Position numbers and translations under genes: made by a program | Shown: one piece after another, positions 2,709-10,578 of the stretch | Numbering within the stretch: position 1 is the first letter of the stretch | Layout: the number at the start of each line of letters is the position of its first letter | Notes under the pieces: model-generated | Databases searched by the model: none | What the model was told of the DNA's origin: nothing | Seen by the model: only the letters and a program-made list of their open reading frames with translations | From: an uncultured Gammaproteobacteria bacterium | GTDB taxonomy: Bacteria; Patescibacteriota; Patescibacteriia; UBA1558; GWA2-36-10 | DNA length: 30,477 nt | Reading direction: 5' to 3' | Assembly: GCA_964455165.1 (NCBI GenBank) | Contig: CAYVXP010000001.1 | Location: 1-30,477, forward strand

Positions 2709-3314
2709 TTATTTTTTGCTAAAAATCAAACCAAAGTGGTATGGGCCAGCCTTGAACTGCTGGACTAGGTCCAAATCCATTTGCGAGGCTAGACTCATGA
2801 TTTCTTCTGGTTTGGCTAGTCTTTCTTTAGAGGGTCCAAATGACAAATCATTGTCAGCCCAGTCAATCACTAGTAGTTTAGCACCTTTTTTTAATAAGCG
2901 AGTGGCTTCAGACATTATTTCAAAATGTTTTTCGGACTGATATAGGACATTGACCAAAATAGCGGAGTCCAGACTTTCACTATTTATTTTGGTAGCACCA
3001 ATGAGCTCTAGATTGCTCCAGACAGTTTTTATGTTATTGAGTCCGGACAGTCTAGCTTTTGATTCTAGTTCAGATAAAATATTTTTTACTACATCGACAG
3101 CATAGACTTGGCCCTGATCACCGACGAGGCGAGCGGCTTGCATCAAAAATAATCCGCCACCAGCACCTAGGTCACCGACCATATCTCCTTTTTTGACTTG
3201 CAATAATTCACTGAGTATTTTACCAGCGTCCATTAGTTCACTCTTGCCACCGACATTTGGAGTAGTCAAGGCAGAGTTGTTACTTGGTGTAATTTGTGTA
3301 GTTATTTCATTCAT
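2709..3314 (-). CDS. Class I SAM-dependent methyltransferase (UbiE-like)
   Basis: VGDLGAGGG motif I, VYAVD motif II, LLVIDW. Confidence 0.88.
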   Translation of the reverse strand: MNEITTQITPSNNSALTTPNVGGKSELMDAGKILSELLQVKKGDMVGDLGAGGGLFLMQAARLVGDQGQVYAVDVVKNILSELESKARLSGLNNIKTVWSNLELIGATKINSESLDSAILVNVLYQSEKHFEIMSEATRLLKKGAKLLVIDWADNDLSFGPSKERLAKPEEIMSLASQMDLDLVQQFKAGPYHFGLIFSKK

Positions 3315-3363
3315 ATTTTTGTATATTTATTATACCAAAAAATATAAGTATCCGCCACCAGCA

Positions 3364-3392
3364 TTGACTTTTGTCAAAGATCAAGTTATAAT
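3364..3392 (+). promoter_or_regulatory. sigma70-type promoter for the tRNA-Glu locus
   Basis: TTGACT(3364-3369)-17 nt-TATAAT(3387-3392). Confidence 0.75.
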
Positions 3393-3449
3393 CTGCCTTG
3401 TATTTTATATATTTGGCCCTATCGTCTAATGGTTAGGACACCAGGTTTT

Positions 3450-3480
3450 TCCCGCGTAGCGGGACCCCGCTCTGCGGTGG
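3450..3480. repeat. 31-bp double-hairpin element (TCCCGC-GTA-GCGGGA + CCCCGC-TCT-GCGGTGG) in the anticodon of the outer tRNA copy
   Basis: First palindrome perfect, second with one extra T; same 15+15 layout as the nusA element. Confidence 0.8.
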
Positions 3481-3544
3481 CATCCTCATGGCCAATAAGT
3501 TGTTTGAAAATTAATAATAATTCATCTCGGCTTGGTGACCTGAC

Positions 3545-3619
3545 GGCCCTATCGTCTAATGGTTAGGACACCAGGTTTTCATCCTGGCAATCGGGGTTCG
3601 ATTCCCCGTGGGGTCACCA
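3545..3619 (+). tRNA. tRNA-Glu (anticodon TTC), intact, CCA encoded
   Basis: Acceptor GGCCCTA/TGGGGTC, anticodon arm CCAGG-TTTTCAT-CCTGG, T arm CGGGG-TTCGATT-CCCCG, 3' ACCA; 75 nt. Confidence 0.97.
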
Positions 3620-3679
3620 AGCCGGCAAGAATTAATAACAGTTTGGCAATCGGGGTTCGATTCCCCGTGGGGTCACCAG

Positions 3680-3710
3680 AAAAAAATCAACCAAAATAGG
3701 TTGTTTTTTT
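3680..3710 (+). terminator. Intrinsic terminator after the tRNA locus
   Basis: CAACC-AAAATA-GGTTG followed by T7. Confidence 0.65.
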
Positions 3711-3735
3711 GTTTTAGGCTAGTCAAGCTTTTTCT

Positions 3736-3764
3736 TTGACATTTAGCTTCAAAGATGCTATTAT
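3736..3764 (+). promoter_or_regulatory. sigma70-type promoter of the cold-shock gene, giving a 5' UTR of about 125 nt
   Basis: TTGACA(3736-3741)-17 nt-TATTAT(3759-3764) with an extended -10 TG. Confidence 0.75.
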
Positions 3765-3894
3765 CATGGACAAACGATTGTCTTGGTGCGCTTTATTCAT
3801 AAAGCCTGCCAAAACAGTAGTTTATGCATTCACTAGCGGAAATATAGTCGAATTTCTAGCTACCTATGCTTTAATTCACTTTATTTCTAAAATT

Positions 3895-4095
3895 ATGCAA
3901 GGCAAAATCAAGAAATTAGTAAGCGATAAAAATTTTGGTTTCATTACTCCAGAAGATGGCGGAAAAGATTTATTTTTTCATGCCAACGAATTGAGTGGTG
4001 TTTCATTCGATCAATTACACGAAGGTGACGATGTCACTTTTGACATGAGCGATACACCAAAAGGACCAGCAGCTGTTAAAGTTAGCTTAGTCTAA
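3895..4095 (+). CDS. cspA: Cold-shock protein (CSD), 66 aa
   Basis: MQGKIKKLVSDKNFGFITPEDGGKDLFFHANEL with RNP1/RNP2 motifs. The true start is ATG 3895, not the 3736 start in the ORF track. Confidence 0.93.
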   Translation: MQGKIKKLVSDKNFGFITPEDGGKDLFFHANELSGVSFDQLHEGDDVTFDMSDTPKGPAAVKVSLV

Positions 4096-5721: not shown

Positions 5722-6369
5722 TTAGCTAGTTTTCTGTATTTTCAAGTAATGGATCTTCTTCTTGTTTGCTAGGTGTTTTTCTTCAAAATAGGTTTTTATT
5801 TTAAGCTCTGGCTTCAAGCTTTTTTGTTTATAGATATCAACTATTTTTTTACTGATTTTAAAGTTCTCTTCTGTGGCGGTTTTTACAGTAAAATTGAATA
5901 ATTTTTTATCGTCAGTTTTGAGATTTATAAATCCCTTAGCTTTTAATATTTTTTTATATTTTTTTAAAAATTGGACAGACACTAGTCTTTTTTTAGCTTG
6001 TTTTTTTCGTGGGTAAGGATCAGGAAAAGTGATCCATATTTCGTCTATTGATTGCTCAGGAAAAATCTTTTCTAAAAAGTCAGCTTGGAAACGTACGAAT
6101 AATAAATTATTTAATTTTTTTGTCTGAGCAATTTTTGCACCATGCCACAATCTTTCGCCTTGGATATCTAGGGCTAGGTATTTGTATGCAGGATTTTTTT
6201 CAGCTAGAGCCAAGCTATACTCACCCTTGCCGCAACCCAATTCTAAAATAATCTTATCATCGTGCTTGATAAATTGTTTTAGTTTTTTATTAAAATTTTT
6301 ATCACCGAATTCTAAGACATTGGTAAAAGATTTTAGTTCGGCGAATTTCTTGAGTTTTTGGCGGGACAT
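5722..6369 (-). CDS. trmB: tRNA (guanine-N7)-methyltransferase
   Basis: LELGCGKGE, IDEIWITFPDPYPRKKQAKKRL, LKTD. Confidence 0.95.
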   Translation of the reverse strand: MSRQKLKKFAELKSFTNVLEFGDKNFNKKLKQFIKHDDKIILELGCGKGEYSLALAEKNPAYKYLALDIQGERLWHGAKIAQTKKLNNLLFVRFQADFLEKIFPEQSIDEIWITFPDPYPRKKQAKKRLVSVQFLKKYKKILKAKGFINLKTDDKKLFNFTVKTATEENFKISKKIVDIYKQKSLKPELKIKTYFEEKHLANKKKIHYLKIQKTS

Positions 6370-6456
6370 ATTTATAGCTTATAGCATTTTTACAGAAAAG
6401 AAAACAGTAGTCCACAAGATTGACAGAGCGGTCTTTTTATCATAAAATATTAAATC

Positions 6457-6465
6457 TGCTATAAT
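6457..6465 (+). promoter_or_regulatory. Extended -10 promoter placing the transcription start at the tsaD ATG (leaderless)
   Basis: TGC-TATAAT, then 6 nt, then ATG 6472. Confidence 0.55.
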
Positions 6466-6471
6466 AGATAT

Positions 6472-7518
6472 ATGCGCATTTTAGCAATTGAAACATCCTG
6501 TGATGAGACTGCCTTGGCTGTCATTGGTGAGCGAAGGGGTTTTTTGTATTTAGAAAAAGATTCTGTCTATTCTCAAGTCAATATTCACAAAAAATATGGC
6601 GGTGTAGTGCCAGAGCTAGCCTCTCGCAAGCACCTAGAAACTATCATGCCATTACTTGACCATACTCTGGGTAAAAATAAGCTAAAAAATATTGACTATA
6701 TTGCCTTTACCCAAGGACCAGGCTTGGTGACTTCTTTAGTTTTGGGAGTGGCAACCGCCAAAGCCCTAAGTCTAGCAAGTAATAAGCCACTAGTGCCTAT
6801 CAATCATCTGGAGGGACACATATATTCCAATTGGCTTACTCACCCAGAATTGCAGACTAACAAAATAAATGTTTTTCCTTGTATTGTTTTAGTGGTTTCT
6901 GGTGGACACACCGAGTTGATCCTGATGACTGATCATGGCAAATATGAACTGATCGGTAAAACACTTGATGATGCTGTAGGTGAAGCCTTTGATAAGGTAG
7001 CTAAACTTTTGAATCTTGGCTATCCTGGTGGGCCGATCGTCAGTAAATTGGCTGCCATGGGCAATGCTCAAAAATATGATTTTCCACGACCAATGATCAA
7101 TAGTCATGATTTTGATTTTAGTCTTTCTGGACTCAAAACTTCTATCTTGTATTTTATGGAAAAGAAGCAAAAAATAAATCAACAAGATGTAGCAGATATT
7201 TGTGCCGGTTTTCAACTAGCGGTCACGGATGTTTTGGTCAAAAAGACTTTTTTGGCCGCTAAAAAATATGAAGCTAAGGCCATAATGCTTGCCGGTGGAG
7301 TCTCAGCTAATACTTTTTTGAAAAAGATCTTAAAATATAAAGCTGATAAACTAGCTCTACCTTTTTTTGCACCAGATATCAAGTTCACTGGCGACAATGC
7401 TGCTATGATTGGAGCGGCCGCTTTCTATAGATTAAAAAATAAACGAGCTAGCATCTTGCGTGGGGAAAATATCAGTAAATTAGAGCCACAGGCCAACTGG
7501 CAATTAGTTGAAAAGTAG
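6472..7518 (+). CDS. tsaD: tRNA N6-threonylcarbamoyladenosine (t6A) synthesis protein TsaD
   Basis: ILAIETSCDET, YGGVVPELASRKH, HLEGH, VSGGHT, TLDDAVGEAFDKVAK, GDNAAMIG. Confidence 0.98.
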   Translation: MRILAIETSCDETALAVIGERRGFLYLEKDSVYSQVNIHKKYGGVVPELASRKHLETIMPLLDHTLGKNKLKNIDYIAFTQGPGLVTSLVLGVATAKALSLASNKPLVPINHLEGHIYSNWLTHPELQTNKINVFPCIVLVVSGGHTELILMTDHGKYELIGKTLDDAVGEAFDKVAKLLNLGYPGGPIVSKLAAMGNAQKYDFPRPMINSHDFDFSLSGLKTSILYFMEKKQKINQQDVADICAGFQLAVTDVLVKKTFLAAKKYEAKAIMLAGGVSANTFLKKILKYKADKLALPFFAPDIKFTGDNAAMIGAAAFYRLKNKRASILRGENISKLEPQANWQLVEK

Positions 7519-7608
7519 TTTTTGAGTAATTCGGTGCAGTATTGTATAATTAAGCAATTGTCCTGGATTAGTTTACGCTAGATTTCTCCAAACAATAAAA
7601 TAATAAAA

Positions 7609-8031
7609 ATGAAAGAATATACATCAAAAACTCAAGGTGAGACAGAAAAAATCGCCCAAGATATTGTGGAACAACTTCAGGGTGGCGAGGTTTTGGCTTT
7701 GGTAGGAAACTTGGGTGCTGGCAAGACAGTTTTTGTAAAAGGCTTGGCCAAGGCGCTGGGTATCGAAGACAATATCACTAGCCCTACTTTTGTTTTGATG
7801 AAAATATATCAGACCAAGCATGCTCGAGTAAAAAGACTAGTGCATGTCGATTGCTATCGCTTGGAAAAAGCTGAGGATCTAGAAGAAATTGGTTTAGCTG
7901 ATTATCTTCATGATCCAGAAAATATTGTTGTGATCGAATGGGCTGATCGAGTAATTAGTTTGCCAAAAAATACTATCAATATTAATATTGAATATATCAA
8001 TAATCAAGAAAGACACGTGGTCATAAAATAA
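7609..8031 (+). CDS. tsaE: t6A ATPase TsaE
   Basis: GNLGAGKT P-loop, ITSPTF, HVDCYRL, IEWA. Confidence 0.96.
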   Translation: MKEYTSKTQGETEKIAQDIVEQLQGGEVLALVGNLGAGKTVFVKGLAKALGIEDNITSPTFVLMKIYQTKHARVKRLVHVDCYRLEKAEDLEEIGLADYLHDPENIVVIEWADRVISLPKNTININIEYINNQERHVVIK

Positions 8032-8034
8032 TAT

Positions 8035-10578
8035 ATGGGTGATCAGGATAGACAAATAGATTTACCAAAGGCCTACGAAGCCTCAGAGCATGAAAAAGCT
8101 ATTTATCAGCTGTGGCTTGATAGTGGTTTTTTTAATCCTGATAATTTAAAAAATGATGGTCCAGCTTTTACTATATCTATGCCCCCGCCAAACGCTACTG
8201 GTATTTTACACCTTGGGCATGCGGCTGGTTTGGCTGTAGAGGATATAGTGATTCGTTATAAGCGTTTGCAAGGCTACAGAGCTTTATGGTTACCGGGTAC
8301 TGATCACGCCTCTATTGCTACACAAACCAAAGTAGAAAAAATATTAGCCAGCGAAGGTACTGATCGCTATACTTTGGGTAGAGAAAAATTTTTAGAACGG
8401 GTTAAGCAATATGTGGCTGATTCTCAGGGTACTATCCGTGAACAAATAAGACGCATTGGTTCTAGTTGTGATTGGTCTCGTGAGCGCTACACTTTTGATG
8501 ATGGGCTATCTCGAGCAGTCAATGAGGCTTTTATCCGCATGTATAATGACGGTCTGATTTACCGCGGTTATCGTATCGTCAATTGGTGTCCGCGTTGCGC
8601 CTCTACTATAGCTGATGATGAAGTAGAGCACGAAGAACAAGACGCTAAATTGTATTATATAAAATACGGTCCCTTTGTCGTCGCTACTACTAGACCAGAA
8701 ACCAAGCTAGCTGACACTGGCGCAGCTGTCCATCCTGATGATGGGCGTTATCAGCAATACCTTGGTCAAACTTTGGAGATTGATCTGGCTGGTCACAAGA
8801 TCAAAGTAAAAGTTTTTGCTGATAAGAGTATTGATCCAACATTTGGCTCTGGTGTAGTTGGTGTCACACCAGCCCATAGCTTGGTGGACTACGACTTTGC
8901 TCAAAAAAATAATCTAGAAATAATCAAGCTCATAGATGAGCAAGGAAAATTATTGGCTAGTGGAGGTAAGTATTCCGGACTAGACGTACTAGAAGCTAGG
9001 AAGCAATTCGTAGCTGATCTACAAGCCGGTGGCTTATTAGAAAAAACAGAGGACATAAAAAATAATTTGTCAGTCTGCTATCGCTGTCAGACAGCCATCG
9101 AACCTCTGCCATCAGAGCAGTGGTTTGTGGCCGTTGATAAAAAAATTCCTGGTCGTGATAAGTCACTCAAAGAGCTTTCCACTGAAGTTGTCAAACACAA
9201 AGATATCAGGATCATGCCCCATCGTTTTGAAAAGATATATTTTAATTGGATGGAAAATCTCCATGACTGGTGTATCTCTAGACAATTGTGGTGGGGGCAC
9301 CGCATCCCTATCTGGTATACAGATGACAAGCAGATTATAGTAGCTCATGATGAAGCCGAGGCCAAAGCCAAGGCTAATGGTCAAAATATTACTCAAGATC
9401 CGGATACCCTAGATACTTGGTTTTCATCTTCATTGTGGACTTTTTCTACCCTAGGCTGGCCAGATAATACCAAGGATCTACAGCTCTATCACCCGACTGG
9501 CTTGATGGAGACTGGCTATGATATTATTTTCTTCTGGGTAGCCAGGATGATTTTGATGACGGAATATTTACTGAATGACAAGCCTTTTTCTTTGGTTTAT
9601 TTACACGGCATAGTGCGTGACAAGGAAGGGAGAAAATTAAGTAAATCTCTGGGCAATGGTATTGACCCAATAGAGATGATAGACAAGTATGGTGCTGATG
9701 CTTTGCGTTTGTCGGTTATTATCGGTGCTACTCCTGGCAATGACTCTCGTGTTTATGAAGAAAAGATTGCTGGCTATCGTAATTTTGTAAATAAACTTTG
9801 GAACATTTCTCGCTTTATTTTTTCCTCAGTCAGCGTGATCAAAAGAGTACAACATGAGCCAGAGGCAAAAACCTTAGCCGATGCTTGGATTTTGTCGGAG
9901 TACAATAATCTAGTAGAAGAGGTGACCACTGATTTTCATAAATATAATCTATCAGTAGCCGGAGAAAAGCTTTATGAGTTTACTTGGTCAAAGTTAGCTG
10001 ATTGGTATCTAGAACTAGCTAAGTTTGAAAAAAATAAGGACGAAATTTTACTTTATATTTTGGAGCGTCTACTTATTATGTGGCATCCTTTTACACCTTT
10101 TGTCACTGAGTTGATTTGGAAGCAATTCCAATCAAAAAATTTAATCATGGTCGAGCATTGGCCAAAAGCTAAAGCACAAAATCAAGAGGCAGTCACAGCC
10201 TTTGCTGAGCTGATGGAGCTAGTGACTATGGTCCGCAACCTCAAAGCAGAAAATAAAATGCGTACAGCGGACAAACCAGATTGTTATATTGAAAATAAAA
10301 TTTTATTTCAAGAGTCAAAATTGACAGCCTCTCATTTGGCTGGTGTCACTTTGCAGGCTAGTGTTATTGATGGAGTAAAGTTTAATACTAGTCATGGCTA
10401 TTTTATCATCAATCTGCATAAGCCACTCAAAGAGCAAGAAGTAGCTAGTATGCAAAAGTATATCGCCGAGCTAGAAGCAAAATTAGCCAACAAGGCTTTT
10501 ACGGAAAATGCTCCACGGCAAATTGTCGATGAGGCTAGACAAAAATTAGAACAAGCTAAGAAAAAAATAGCCCCCTAG
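8035..10578 (+). CDS. valS: Valine--tRNA ligase
   Basis: PPPNATGILHLGHA, PGTDHASIATQ, DWCISRQLWWGHRIP, DPDTLDTWFSS, KLSKSLGN. Confidence 0.98.
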   Translation: MGDQDRQIDLPKAYEASEHEKAIYQLWLDSGFFNPDNLKNDGPAFTISMPPPNATGILHLGHAAGLAVEDIVIRYKRLQGYRALWLPGTDHASIATQTKVEKILASEGTDRYTLGREKFLERVKQYVADSQGTIREQIRRIGSSCDWSRERYTFDDGLSRAVNEAFIRMYNDGLIYRGYRIVNWCPRCASTIADDEVEHEEQDAKLYYIKYGPFVVATTRPETKLADTGAAVHPDDGRYQQYLGQTLEIDLAGHKIKVKVFADKSIDPTFGSGVVGVTPAHSLVDYDFAQKNNLEIIKLIDEQGKLLASGGKYSGLDVLEARKQFVADLQAGGLLEKTEDIKNNLSVCYRCQTAIEPLPSEQWFVAVDKKIPGRDKSLKELSTEVVKHKDIRIMPHRFEKIYFNWMENLHDWCISRQLWWGHRIPIWYTDDKQIIVAHDEAEAKAKANGQNITQDPDTLDTWFSSSLWTFSTLGWPDNTKDLQLYHPTGLMETGYDIIFFWVARMILMTEYLLNDKPFSLVYLHGIVRDKEGRKLSKSLGNGIDPIEMIDKYGADALRLSVIIGATPGNDSRVYEEKIAGYRNFVNKLWNISRFIFSSVSVIKRVQHEPEAKTLADAWILSEYNNLVEEVTTDFHKYNLSVAGEKLYEFTWSKLADWYLELAKFEKNKDEILLYILERLLIMWHPFTPFVTELIWKQFQSKNLIMVEHWPKAKAQNQEAVTAFAELMELVTMVRNLKAENKMRTADKPDCYIENKILFQESKLTASHLAGVTLQASVIDGVKFNTSHGYFIINLHKPLKEQEVASMQKYIAELEAKLANKAFTENAPRQIVDEARQKLEQAKKKIAP

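Follow-up and report, generated by a model that had tools for sequence, protein, structure and literature searches.

The stretch of DNA analyzed here, called the window, comprises 30,477 nucleotides of a 789-kb assembly (91.6% complete) of a genome (G000) whose nearest named relatives are Patescibacteria. At one of its loci, an intact tRNA-Glu gene lies between two arms able to pair with each other (the clamp), and these are in turn enclosed by two halves of the same tRNA, which we call the 5' and 3' shells. The features, all on the plus strand, are the following:

3364-3392, plus strand: sigma-70-type promoter of the original tRNA-Glu gene (11/12 consensus matches), its position kept in relatives with an empty site
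3415-3449, plus strand: 5' shell, tRNA-Glu nt 1-35, with 35/35 identity to the inner copy and its break within the anticodon (35/36)
3450-3480, plus strand: GC-rich palindromic insert of 31 nt forming a double hairpin at anticodon position 35/36, recognized from sequence and relatives
3481-3496, plus strand: decayed remnant of tRNA nt 36-47, recognized from sequence and cleaner in two relatives (G006 and G058)
3508-3544, plus strand: left clamp arm, with a core at 3528-3540 and a distal part at 3518-3523
3545-3619, plus strand: intact tRNA-Glu(UUC) of 75 nt with encoded CCA, the sole tRNA-Glu(UUC) in the assembly
3620-3643, plus strand: right clamp arm (trailer), defined by its pairing with the left arm
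3644-3678, plus strand: 3' shell, tRNA nt 41-75, with 35/35 identity and a predicted outer acceptor stem with the 5' shell (P about 0.97)
3688-3712, plus strand: intrinsic terminator of the original gene (hairpin and T-tract), recognized from sequence

Thus one promoter and one terminator enclose both shells and the inner tRNA, and the whole transcript folds at z = -4.1, with the halves forming an outer acceptor stem and the inner tRNA standing at the tip of a long stalk. Leader-trailer stalks are known in pre-rRNA. An AT-rich spacer separates the left arm from the remnant of nt 36-47, which has about 5-6 nt in common with the beginning of the 3' shell, an apparent target duplication of nt 41-45/46. 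No ORF of at least 80 aa occurs within 3415-3678, where the inserts are too short to hold one, and the flanking genes encode a methyltransferase and a cold-shock protein, with no integrase gene adjoining the tRNA fragments. In the Rfam scan of the locus, the tRNA alone reached the cut-off and no intron match appeared at E values up to 10. The window also encodes, at 3895-4095 and 5722-10578, the cold-shock protein, a TrmB-like methyltransferase, TsaD, TsaE and valyl-tRNA synthetase. An internal promoter-like site at 3489-3518 (9/12), which would start transcription at the left arm, was rejected as not significant, three such sites being present against 1.5 +/- 1.2 in shuffled sequences.

The original prediction concerned the left arm, and its observations on pairing hold: 3528-3540 and 3612-3624 are exact reverse complements, and so, at matching spacing, are 3518-3523 and 3629-3634, the two pairs sharing one register with coordinate sums of 7152. 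The 13-mer had been described as covering the acceptor 3' strand, CCA and trailer, which is right for the discriminator, the CCA and five trailer bases, while of the acceptor strand it is antisense to four bases out of seven (3612-3615, nt 69-72) and not to the whole. The two perfect 35-nt halves of the same tRNA around this unit were overlooked. A match of at least 13 nt arose in 1 of 20,000 random genomic 60-mers, about the contribution of the locus itself, and the 13-mer occurs in the genome solely as the two arms. The match thus greatly exceeds what chance would give. Unitigs of public lake and freshwater metagenomes from several studies match 3200-3444, 3420-3574, 3460-3579, 3590-3673 and 3649-3950 with zero mismatches, a piecewise support in which no single unitig spans the whole locus. 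One of the runs may come from the source sample, while two others belong to separate studies. Contigs of one RNA run gave no exact match over the locus, a result that carries no information. Because independent unitigs match the junctions and relatives have the layout in common, an assembly artefact is ruled out.

Since the shells and the remnant at 3481-3485 (nt 36-40) together provide all 75 nt of a second tRNA in order (nt 1-35, 36-40 and 41-75), and since folding of the outer halves gives an acceptor stem together with D and T arms, the inner tRNA might be regarded as a passenger in an intron of a spliced outer tRNA. We consider this very improbable, as no group I or II intron match was found in the locus and the shells of relatives are decayed, truncated or filled with further palindromes, which indicates that they are not under tRNA-like selection.

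The search for tRNA units flanked by inverted repeats elsewhere, which the original prediction had proposed, revealed the same nested design in genomes across this Patescibacteria order, at both tRNA-Glu and tRNA-Asp, the arm sequences being unrelated. In the same genome, tRNA-Asp(GTC) (G000 contig C15 5350-5610; L050:850-1110) has an 18-bp clamp unrelated in sequence to the Glu clamp, short 5' and 3' shells and palindromic inserts. At the orthologous Glu site, G001 and G002 carry the arm type of G000 and G004 and G006 each carry unrelated arms, giving three unrelated arm types inside one genus; G003 is empty, and G005 has the right arm and 3' shell only. The Asp site is filled in G003, G006, G009 and G011 and empty in G001, G002 and G005. 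The inner tRNA differs from its shell in several cases (Glu(TTC) of G006, Glu(CTC) of G002 and G009, Ile of G002), consistent with a foreign incoming allele. In G009, tRNA-Asp is nested twice (L061:1480-1830), an older inverted-repeat pair bracketing a shell that was later invaded. Upstream 5' tRNA fragments are more frequent than clamps and accompany 5 of the 24 tRNAs of the genome studied and 7-9 of about 40 in three sister genomes, and none of the 36 tRNAs of G009 by the same strict test. A pattern search for the clamp in metagenomes returned 22 matches, including 3 real tRNA loci, all 3 of the same design. A host tree built from flanking DNA was discarded as unreliable, the G002 flank not being orthologous.

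Several further observations were made in these genomes. Tandem or stacked cassettes and triplicated 3' tRNA fragments are present at L261 and L275 (G106), L255 (G246) and L198 (tRNA-Gly of G009). Palindromic repeats directly follow the CCA of many tRNAs (G000 contigs C4, C16, C17, C18, C37, C78 and C89); several of these end in an inverted ACCA copy, and similar repeats sit at fixed positions in the loops of shells. In the tRNA-Glu(CTC) loci of G006, G002 and G009 (L130, L161 and L195), it is the acceptor sequence of the inner tRNA that differs from the shell; their common clamp pairs all of ACCA, with 3-6 nt of leader looped out.

Prophages and genomic islands use tRNA genes as attB sites. 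The footprint classically left at attR by such elements is an intact tRNA followed downstream by a 3' tRNA fragment of about 35 nt. The locus could thus be the remnant of an element whose tyrosine integrase acted at the anticodon arm and which carried its own tRNA copy, all but the essential tRNA having since been deleted. As with such elements, the insertion lies in the anticodon-arm region, tRNA fragments are duplicated (35 nt, 5' and 3') and an intact tRNA is retained, and the G005 allele is exactly a tRNA, 24 nt and a 3' fragment. Still, such a remnant is quite unlikely. The cassettes have no integrase seen, combine 5' and 3' fragments with a full inner copy, and carry as cargo a tRNA with or without a nuclease; a small GIY-YIG gene is the only gene identified inside any of them, and the Asp clamp pattern found no match (0) in viral contigs in one pattern search. 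The geometry of nested Asp cassettes is also conserved and short, with about 36-39 nt on the left and 27-29 nt on the right, unlike the outcome of random deletion.

MITEs, the Rickettsia RPE and REP/REPIN sequences are short non-coding inverted-repeat units that invade RNA genes. In the present case, by contrast, the loop of the clamp hairpin is a whole essential gene, and the arms neither belong to a repeat family, dispersed copies of the arm sequence being absent from the genome (the 13-mer is limited to the two arms), nor probably stand at the true ends of the unit. Imperfect inverted arms reach near 3497 and 3643, and a conserved palindrome lies further out; at the arms there is an overlap of 5-6 nt of tRNA nt 41-46 in Glu and of 4 nt (39-42) in Asp. 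The palindrome occupies the matching shell position in G001, G002, G006, G045, G207 and G246, and repeats related to it adjoin other tRNAs of the same genome; 3450-3480 is the probable left end of a traveling cassette. The idea of a mini mobile unit carrying the tRNA is the best-supported part of the original prediction, given the split halves of the same gene, the empty sites in sisters and the nucleases in related cassettes, whereas its view of the repeats as terminal inverted repeats probably fails, the traveling segment probably beginning about 60-80 nt further left, at the anticodon palindrome.

Most clamps of relatives differ from the one studied in that they leave the acceptor stem alone, and their pairing was assessed in 238 tRNAs of 47 genomes, a sample enriched for Glu and Asp. 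At least 10 of 12 leader-trailer Watson-Crick pairs were found in 24 of the 238, against 38 of 18,371 swapped leader/trailer pairs (0.2%). In 11 related Asp clamps, 175 of 176 cells are paired over positions -3 to -18, with both-sided changes in 11 columns, and across 29 clamps G-U outnumbers A-C mismatches 18:2, where neutral decay would give about 1:1, all these counts coming from related genomes and kin that are not independent. Because the arms covary and G-U prevails to this extent, selection appears to act on the helix in the sense strand. In register-0 clamps, of which there are 22, pairing begins sharply at -3:C75, with -1:73 never Watson-Crick and -2:74 Watson-Crick in four. Pairing of -1 and -2 with RCCA inhibits RNase P, for which U(-1) is optimal (PMC9433436), and the boundary of the register-0 helix fits these rules; C75 and A76 remain paired and must be unwound. 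With a shuffled left arm, competition from the shells in the folding model lowered P(inner acceptor) in five of the six nested loci, from 0.96-1.0 to 0.0-0.22, and the usual clamp is predicted to shield the inner tRNA from its shells. A T-tract of at least 6 follows the clamp in 14 of 22 clamped tRNAs and in 26 of 217 others, and several clamps stand alone directly behind a promoter, which suggests that clamp and U-tract may serve as a terminator with the tRNA as its loop. In five stand-alone tRNA-Asp genes (L076, L077, L078, L080 and L084, about 1501-1583, tRNA strand), leader-trailer pairing is followed by a T-tract with no separate hairpin.

These data bear on whether the structure is a neutral scar, in which template switching on the folded single-stranded tRNA gene made the quasi-palindrome and goes on homogenizing it, partial duplications made the shells, and neither an RNA role nor a mobilizer is involved. 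The arm is truly antisense and starts inside the acceptor strand, hairpin repeats mirroring the CCA end follow many tRNAs in these genomes, and template switching is described as homogenizing the arms of inverted repeats (PMC8604942). However, homogenization of DNA does not predict an 18:2 excess of G-U over A-C, nor would a scar predict a helix stopping just short of the RNase P site, a one-sided U-tract or isotype-specific nucleases in the same architecture, and we regard this explanation as rather improbable. For the template-switch inversion proposed originally, this leaves a divided outcome. The left arm has an A opposite U71, where the real 5' strand has a G, and because of this it is an antisense copy of the 3' end rather than a duplicated 5' strand, in agreement with such an origin; maintenance of the arms with compensatory changes is not accounted for.

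In the locus studied, an 8-nt register shift (3533-3540) makes the left arm invade the acceptor stem, involving 4 acceptor pairs. Folding of the precursor, a check proposed with the original prediction, predicts that the leader pairs with the 3' end: P(leader helix) is 1.00 and P(acceptor stem) 0.00, with the leader-helix form 8-10 kcal/mol below the cloverleaf form in the model, the latter still possible if 8 leader bases loop out. Deletion of 3533-3540 in silico yields an ordinary clamp with P(inner acceptor) = 0.97. The acceptor stem is rich in G-U (two G-U pairs) and easily displaced in the models even without the arm, P(acceptor) being 0.35 with the leader removed and 0.02-0.04 in unclamped loci, values to be read with the fact that such models ignore tertiary structure and over-predict displacement of the weak tRNA-Glu acceptor stem. 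On this modeling, the precursor is predicted to be misfolded until trimmed. Because it is the sole tRNA-Glu(UUC) assembled, the cell must mature the inner tRNA. RNase P RNA and protein are present in the genome; RNase III was not found in this assembly and is present in 37 of 38 genomes of the family, so its gene is probably unassembled here rather than missing. The invading design occurs in five genomes with three unrelated arm sequences (G000/G001/G002, G045 and G058). By the strict pattern it is found in 4 of 86 genomes of the order (G000, G001, G002 and G045), G058 being additional, and 401 sampled genomes of the class gave two further short matches, both lacking a trailer clamp.

A leader that pairs with the 3' RCCA acts as an anti-determinant of RNase P, lowering kcat/Km 13-fold in E. 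coli (PMC9433436). In such known cases, as in the invading clamp, pairing between leader and 3' end either lengthens the acceptor helix or blocks it; they involve 2-3 bp, in contrast to a covarying helix of 13-20 bp that lies in an inserted cassette and, in the invading variant, displaces acceptor pairs. This raises the question of a dedicated maturation switch, an invading leader selected to keep pre-tRNA-Glu misfolded with its CCA hidden, so that unwinding or cleavage would set the supply. Several points speak for it: the acceptor stem is predicted to be fully displaced, such pairing inhibits RNase P, the invading design is built from three unrelated arms, and the 17 nt preceding the tRNA are identical in three species despite a diverged neighboring spacer. 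Against it, the design is rare, the invading arm is missing from this locus in sister species, neither a ligand nor a protein partner nor another trigger can be seen, and in most clamps the pairing keeps clear of both the acceptor stem and the RNase P site. We therefore consider a dedicated switch unlikely. Competition between leader and acceptor stem, which the original prediction foresaw, is thus borne out in silico, while the regulated folding or maturation switch drawn from it is not, and in the models the weak stem yields even without the arm.

Genes for small GIY-YIG proteins provide a second line of comparison. Such a gene, encoding 80-90 aa, separates the intact tRNA from a 5' shell that is interrupted by a palindrome at the Glu locus of G041, the Phe locus of G006 and the Trp, Tyr and Met loci of G002, and a palindrome within the 5' shell stands just ahead of nearly every tRNA-linked ORF. 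The tRNA-linked proteins, of 80-102 aa, have PF01541 as their sole domain and no separate C-terminal DNA-binding domain, and the group I intron endonuclease model matched them over 4-80 of its 215 positions, far below the cut-off. With the G041 protein as query against 401 genomes of the class, the best 12 genomes (about 11 families) all have the gene just upstream of tRNA-Glu, with weaker matches at Gly, Leu, Arg, Gln or no tRNA. The Glu-linked nucleases form one clade with support 98/98 (99 with order-level additions), and 18 of the 30 top order-level matches lie within 200 nt of a tRNA, 4 of the 18 being the query sequences themselves. Clamp and nuclease are directly joined at one locus only, in G058 (L295:1150-1850, plus strand), which holds a 5' shell ending at nt 45 as in the genome studied, an acceptor-invading clamp, tRNA-Glu(TTC), a Glu-clade nuclease and an extra tRNA fragment. 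At L120:1165-1575 (G041) and L258, the GIY-YIG stop codon falls within the first 15 nt of the intact tRNA-Glu. The filled and empty Glu and Asp alleles of relatives, together with a clade fixed to tRNA-Glu, amount to the site association of a homing element. In the genome studied, neither of the two GIY-YIG matches in its 91.6% complete assembly is a tRNA-linked nuclease. These two genes, of 94-96 aa (L109 and L110; G000 C64:867-1151 and C79 about 1900-2190), are flanked by hairpin repeats similar to Ssn-related motifs, lie away from tRNAs and are candidate Ssn systems in a Patescibacterium.

Two known systems come closest. SegB, encoded in the tRNA cluster of phage T4, is a free-standing GIY-YIG homing endonuclease that cuts within tRNA genes (PMC2330249). 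As in the cassettes, a GIY-YIG gene lies among tRNA genes, and SegB, though intronless, drives the inheritance of itself and of neighboring tRNA genes (PMC2330249). It differs in having a C-terminal NUMOD3 DNA-binding part and in reading a T-loop motif of many tRNAs (PMC2330249), whereas the Patescibacteria nucleases are bare domains of 80-100 aa that cluster by tRNA isotype, and their cassettes are chromosomal, occupy the interior of the target gene and restore it by supplying a full copy; the locus studied is without a nuclease gene. Ssn proteins are small, single-domain, site-specific GIY-YIG nucleases of single-stranded DNA, with SRM/NTS hairpin repeats of 20-50 nt and an IS-like layout, which act on transforming ssDNA (PMC11893778). 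The tRNA-linked proteins are similar in size and hairpin context, as are the genome's own two hairpin-flanked genes; yet tRNA is nowhere mentioned in the Ssn paper (PMC11893778), and in a tree from a short alignment the tRNA-linked proteins branch apart from the two Ssn-like proteins. On present tests, the locus is not an integrase element, a member of a MITE family or a group I intron, nor is it assigned to the Seg-type or Ssn systems.

We favor the interpretation, with a probability of about 0.6, that the locus is a non-autonomous, nuclease-less copy of a tRNA-replacement cassette. Its anatomy shows that the anticodon/variable-loop region of the resident gene contains a segment of about 150-190 bp in which inverted arms flank a complete tRNA-Glu, and that the 5' and 3' shells remain under the control of the old promoter and terminator. 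Such a cassette may have spread by homing-like repair, in which a single-domain GIY-YIG nuclease of the Glu clade would cut or nick the tRNA gene, probably in a structured single-stranded form, after which the donor allele would be copied in with the two tRNA halves as homology arms. Homing-like copying would account for the contrast between the pristine outer parts of the shells and the decay of the segment lying inside the palindrome. Comparative evidence and models suggest that the arms are kept since the transcript helix around the inner tRNA blocks its pairing with its own shells, and in many relatives this helix, ending in a U-tract, may double as a terminator of which the tRNA is the loop. 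The left arm would have originated when the tRNA 3' end was copied in antisense by fold-back; its acceptor-complementary part would have been lost in most lineages and is kept in this one as 4 bp, or the change may have run in the reverse direction. In the present case, the helix of the precursor would need to be unwound or cut, by RNase III or exonucleases, before RNase P could act, and the slower maturation is probably a tolerated by-product rather than a dedicated switch.

Support for the cassette comes from sequence comparison, namely the perfect halves, the recurrence, the empty sites, the covariation and the association of nucleases with isotypes; mobility and any switch function are what we infer from them. 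Against it, the target should persist in the intact inner tRNA, and the stacking of cassettes suggests that re-cutting may not be escaped. Part of the patchiness could also stem from a single old insertion that was inherited vertically and underwent repeated loss and gene conversion. A broader proposal, which we put forward only tentatively and consider doubtful as a whole, is a distinct class of minimal selfish elements in which an isotype-specific, single-domain GIY-YIG nuclease reads the folded tRNA gene as ssDNA and inserts a hairpin-clamped replacement, the clamp insulating the new tRNA, being able to terminate transcription and, in the present locus, controlling maturation by misfolding.

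In the literature covered, which lay mostly outside subscription journals, no description was found of nested or self-inserted bacterial tRNA genes or of tRNA palindromes in Patescibacteria, and the locus is apparently part of an undescribed, recurrent process of tRNA gene replacement in these ultra-small bacteria. Its contribution consists of a clamp that invades the acceptor stem, the finding that ordinary clamps carry a U-tract and have a geometry compatible with RNase P, the test of insulation, and the link that directly joins clamp and nuclease. The nucleases of 80-90 aa to which it points are apparently specific for tRNA isotypes, which can be examined with synthetic DNA, and the clamped precursors represent natural substrates for studying how RNase P handles a CCA end sequestered in 13-20 bp. 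If the interpretation as a replacement cassette is true, a selfish element would invade an essential single-copy RNA gene without splicing, by bringing a spare copy wrapped in a helix, which folds apart from the remains of the old gene. This would also explain the orphan tRNA halves in Patescibacteria assemblies and would provide these bacteria with a route for the horizontal swapping of tRNA alleles.
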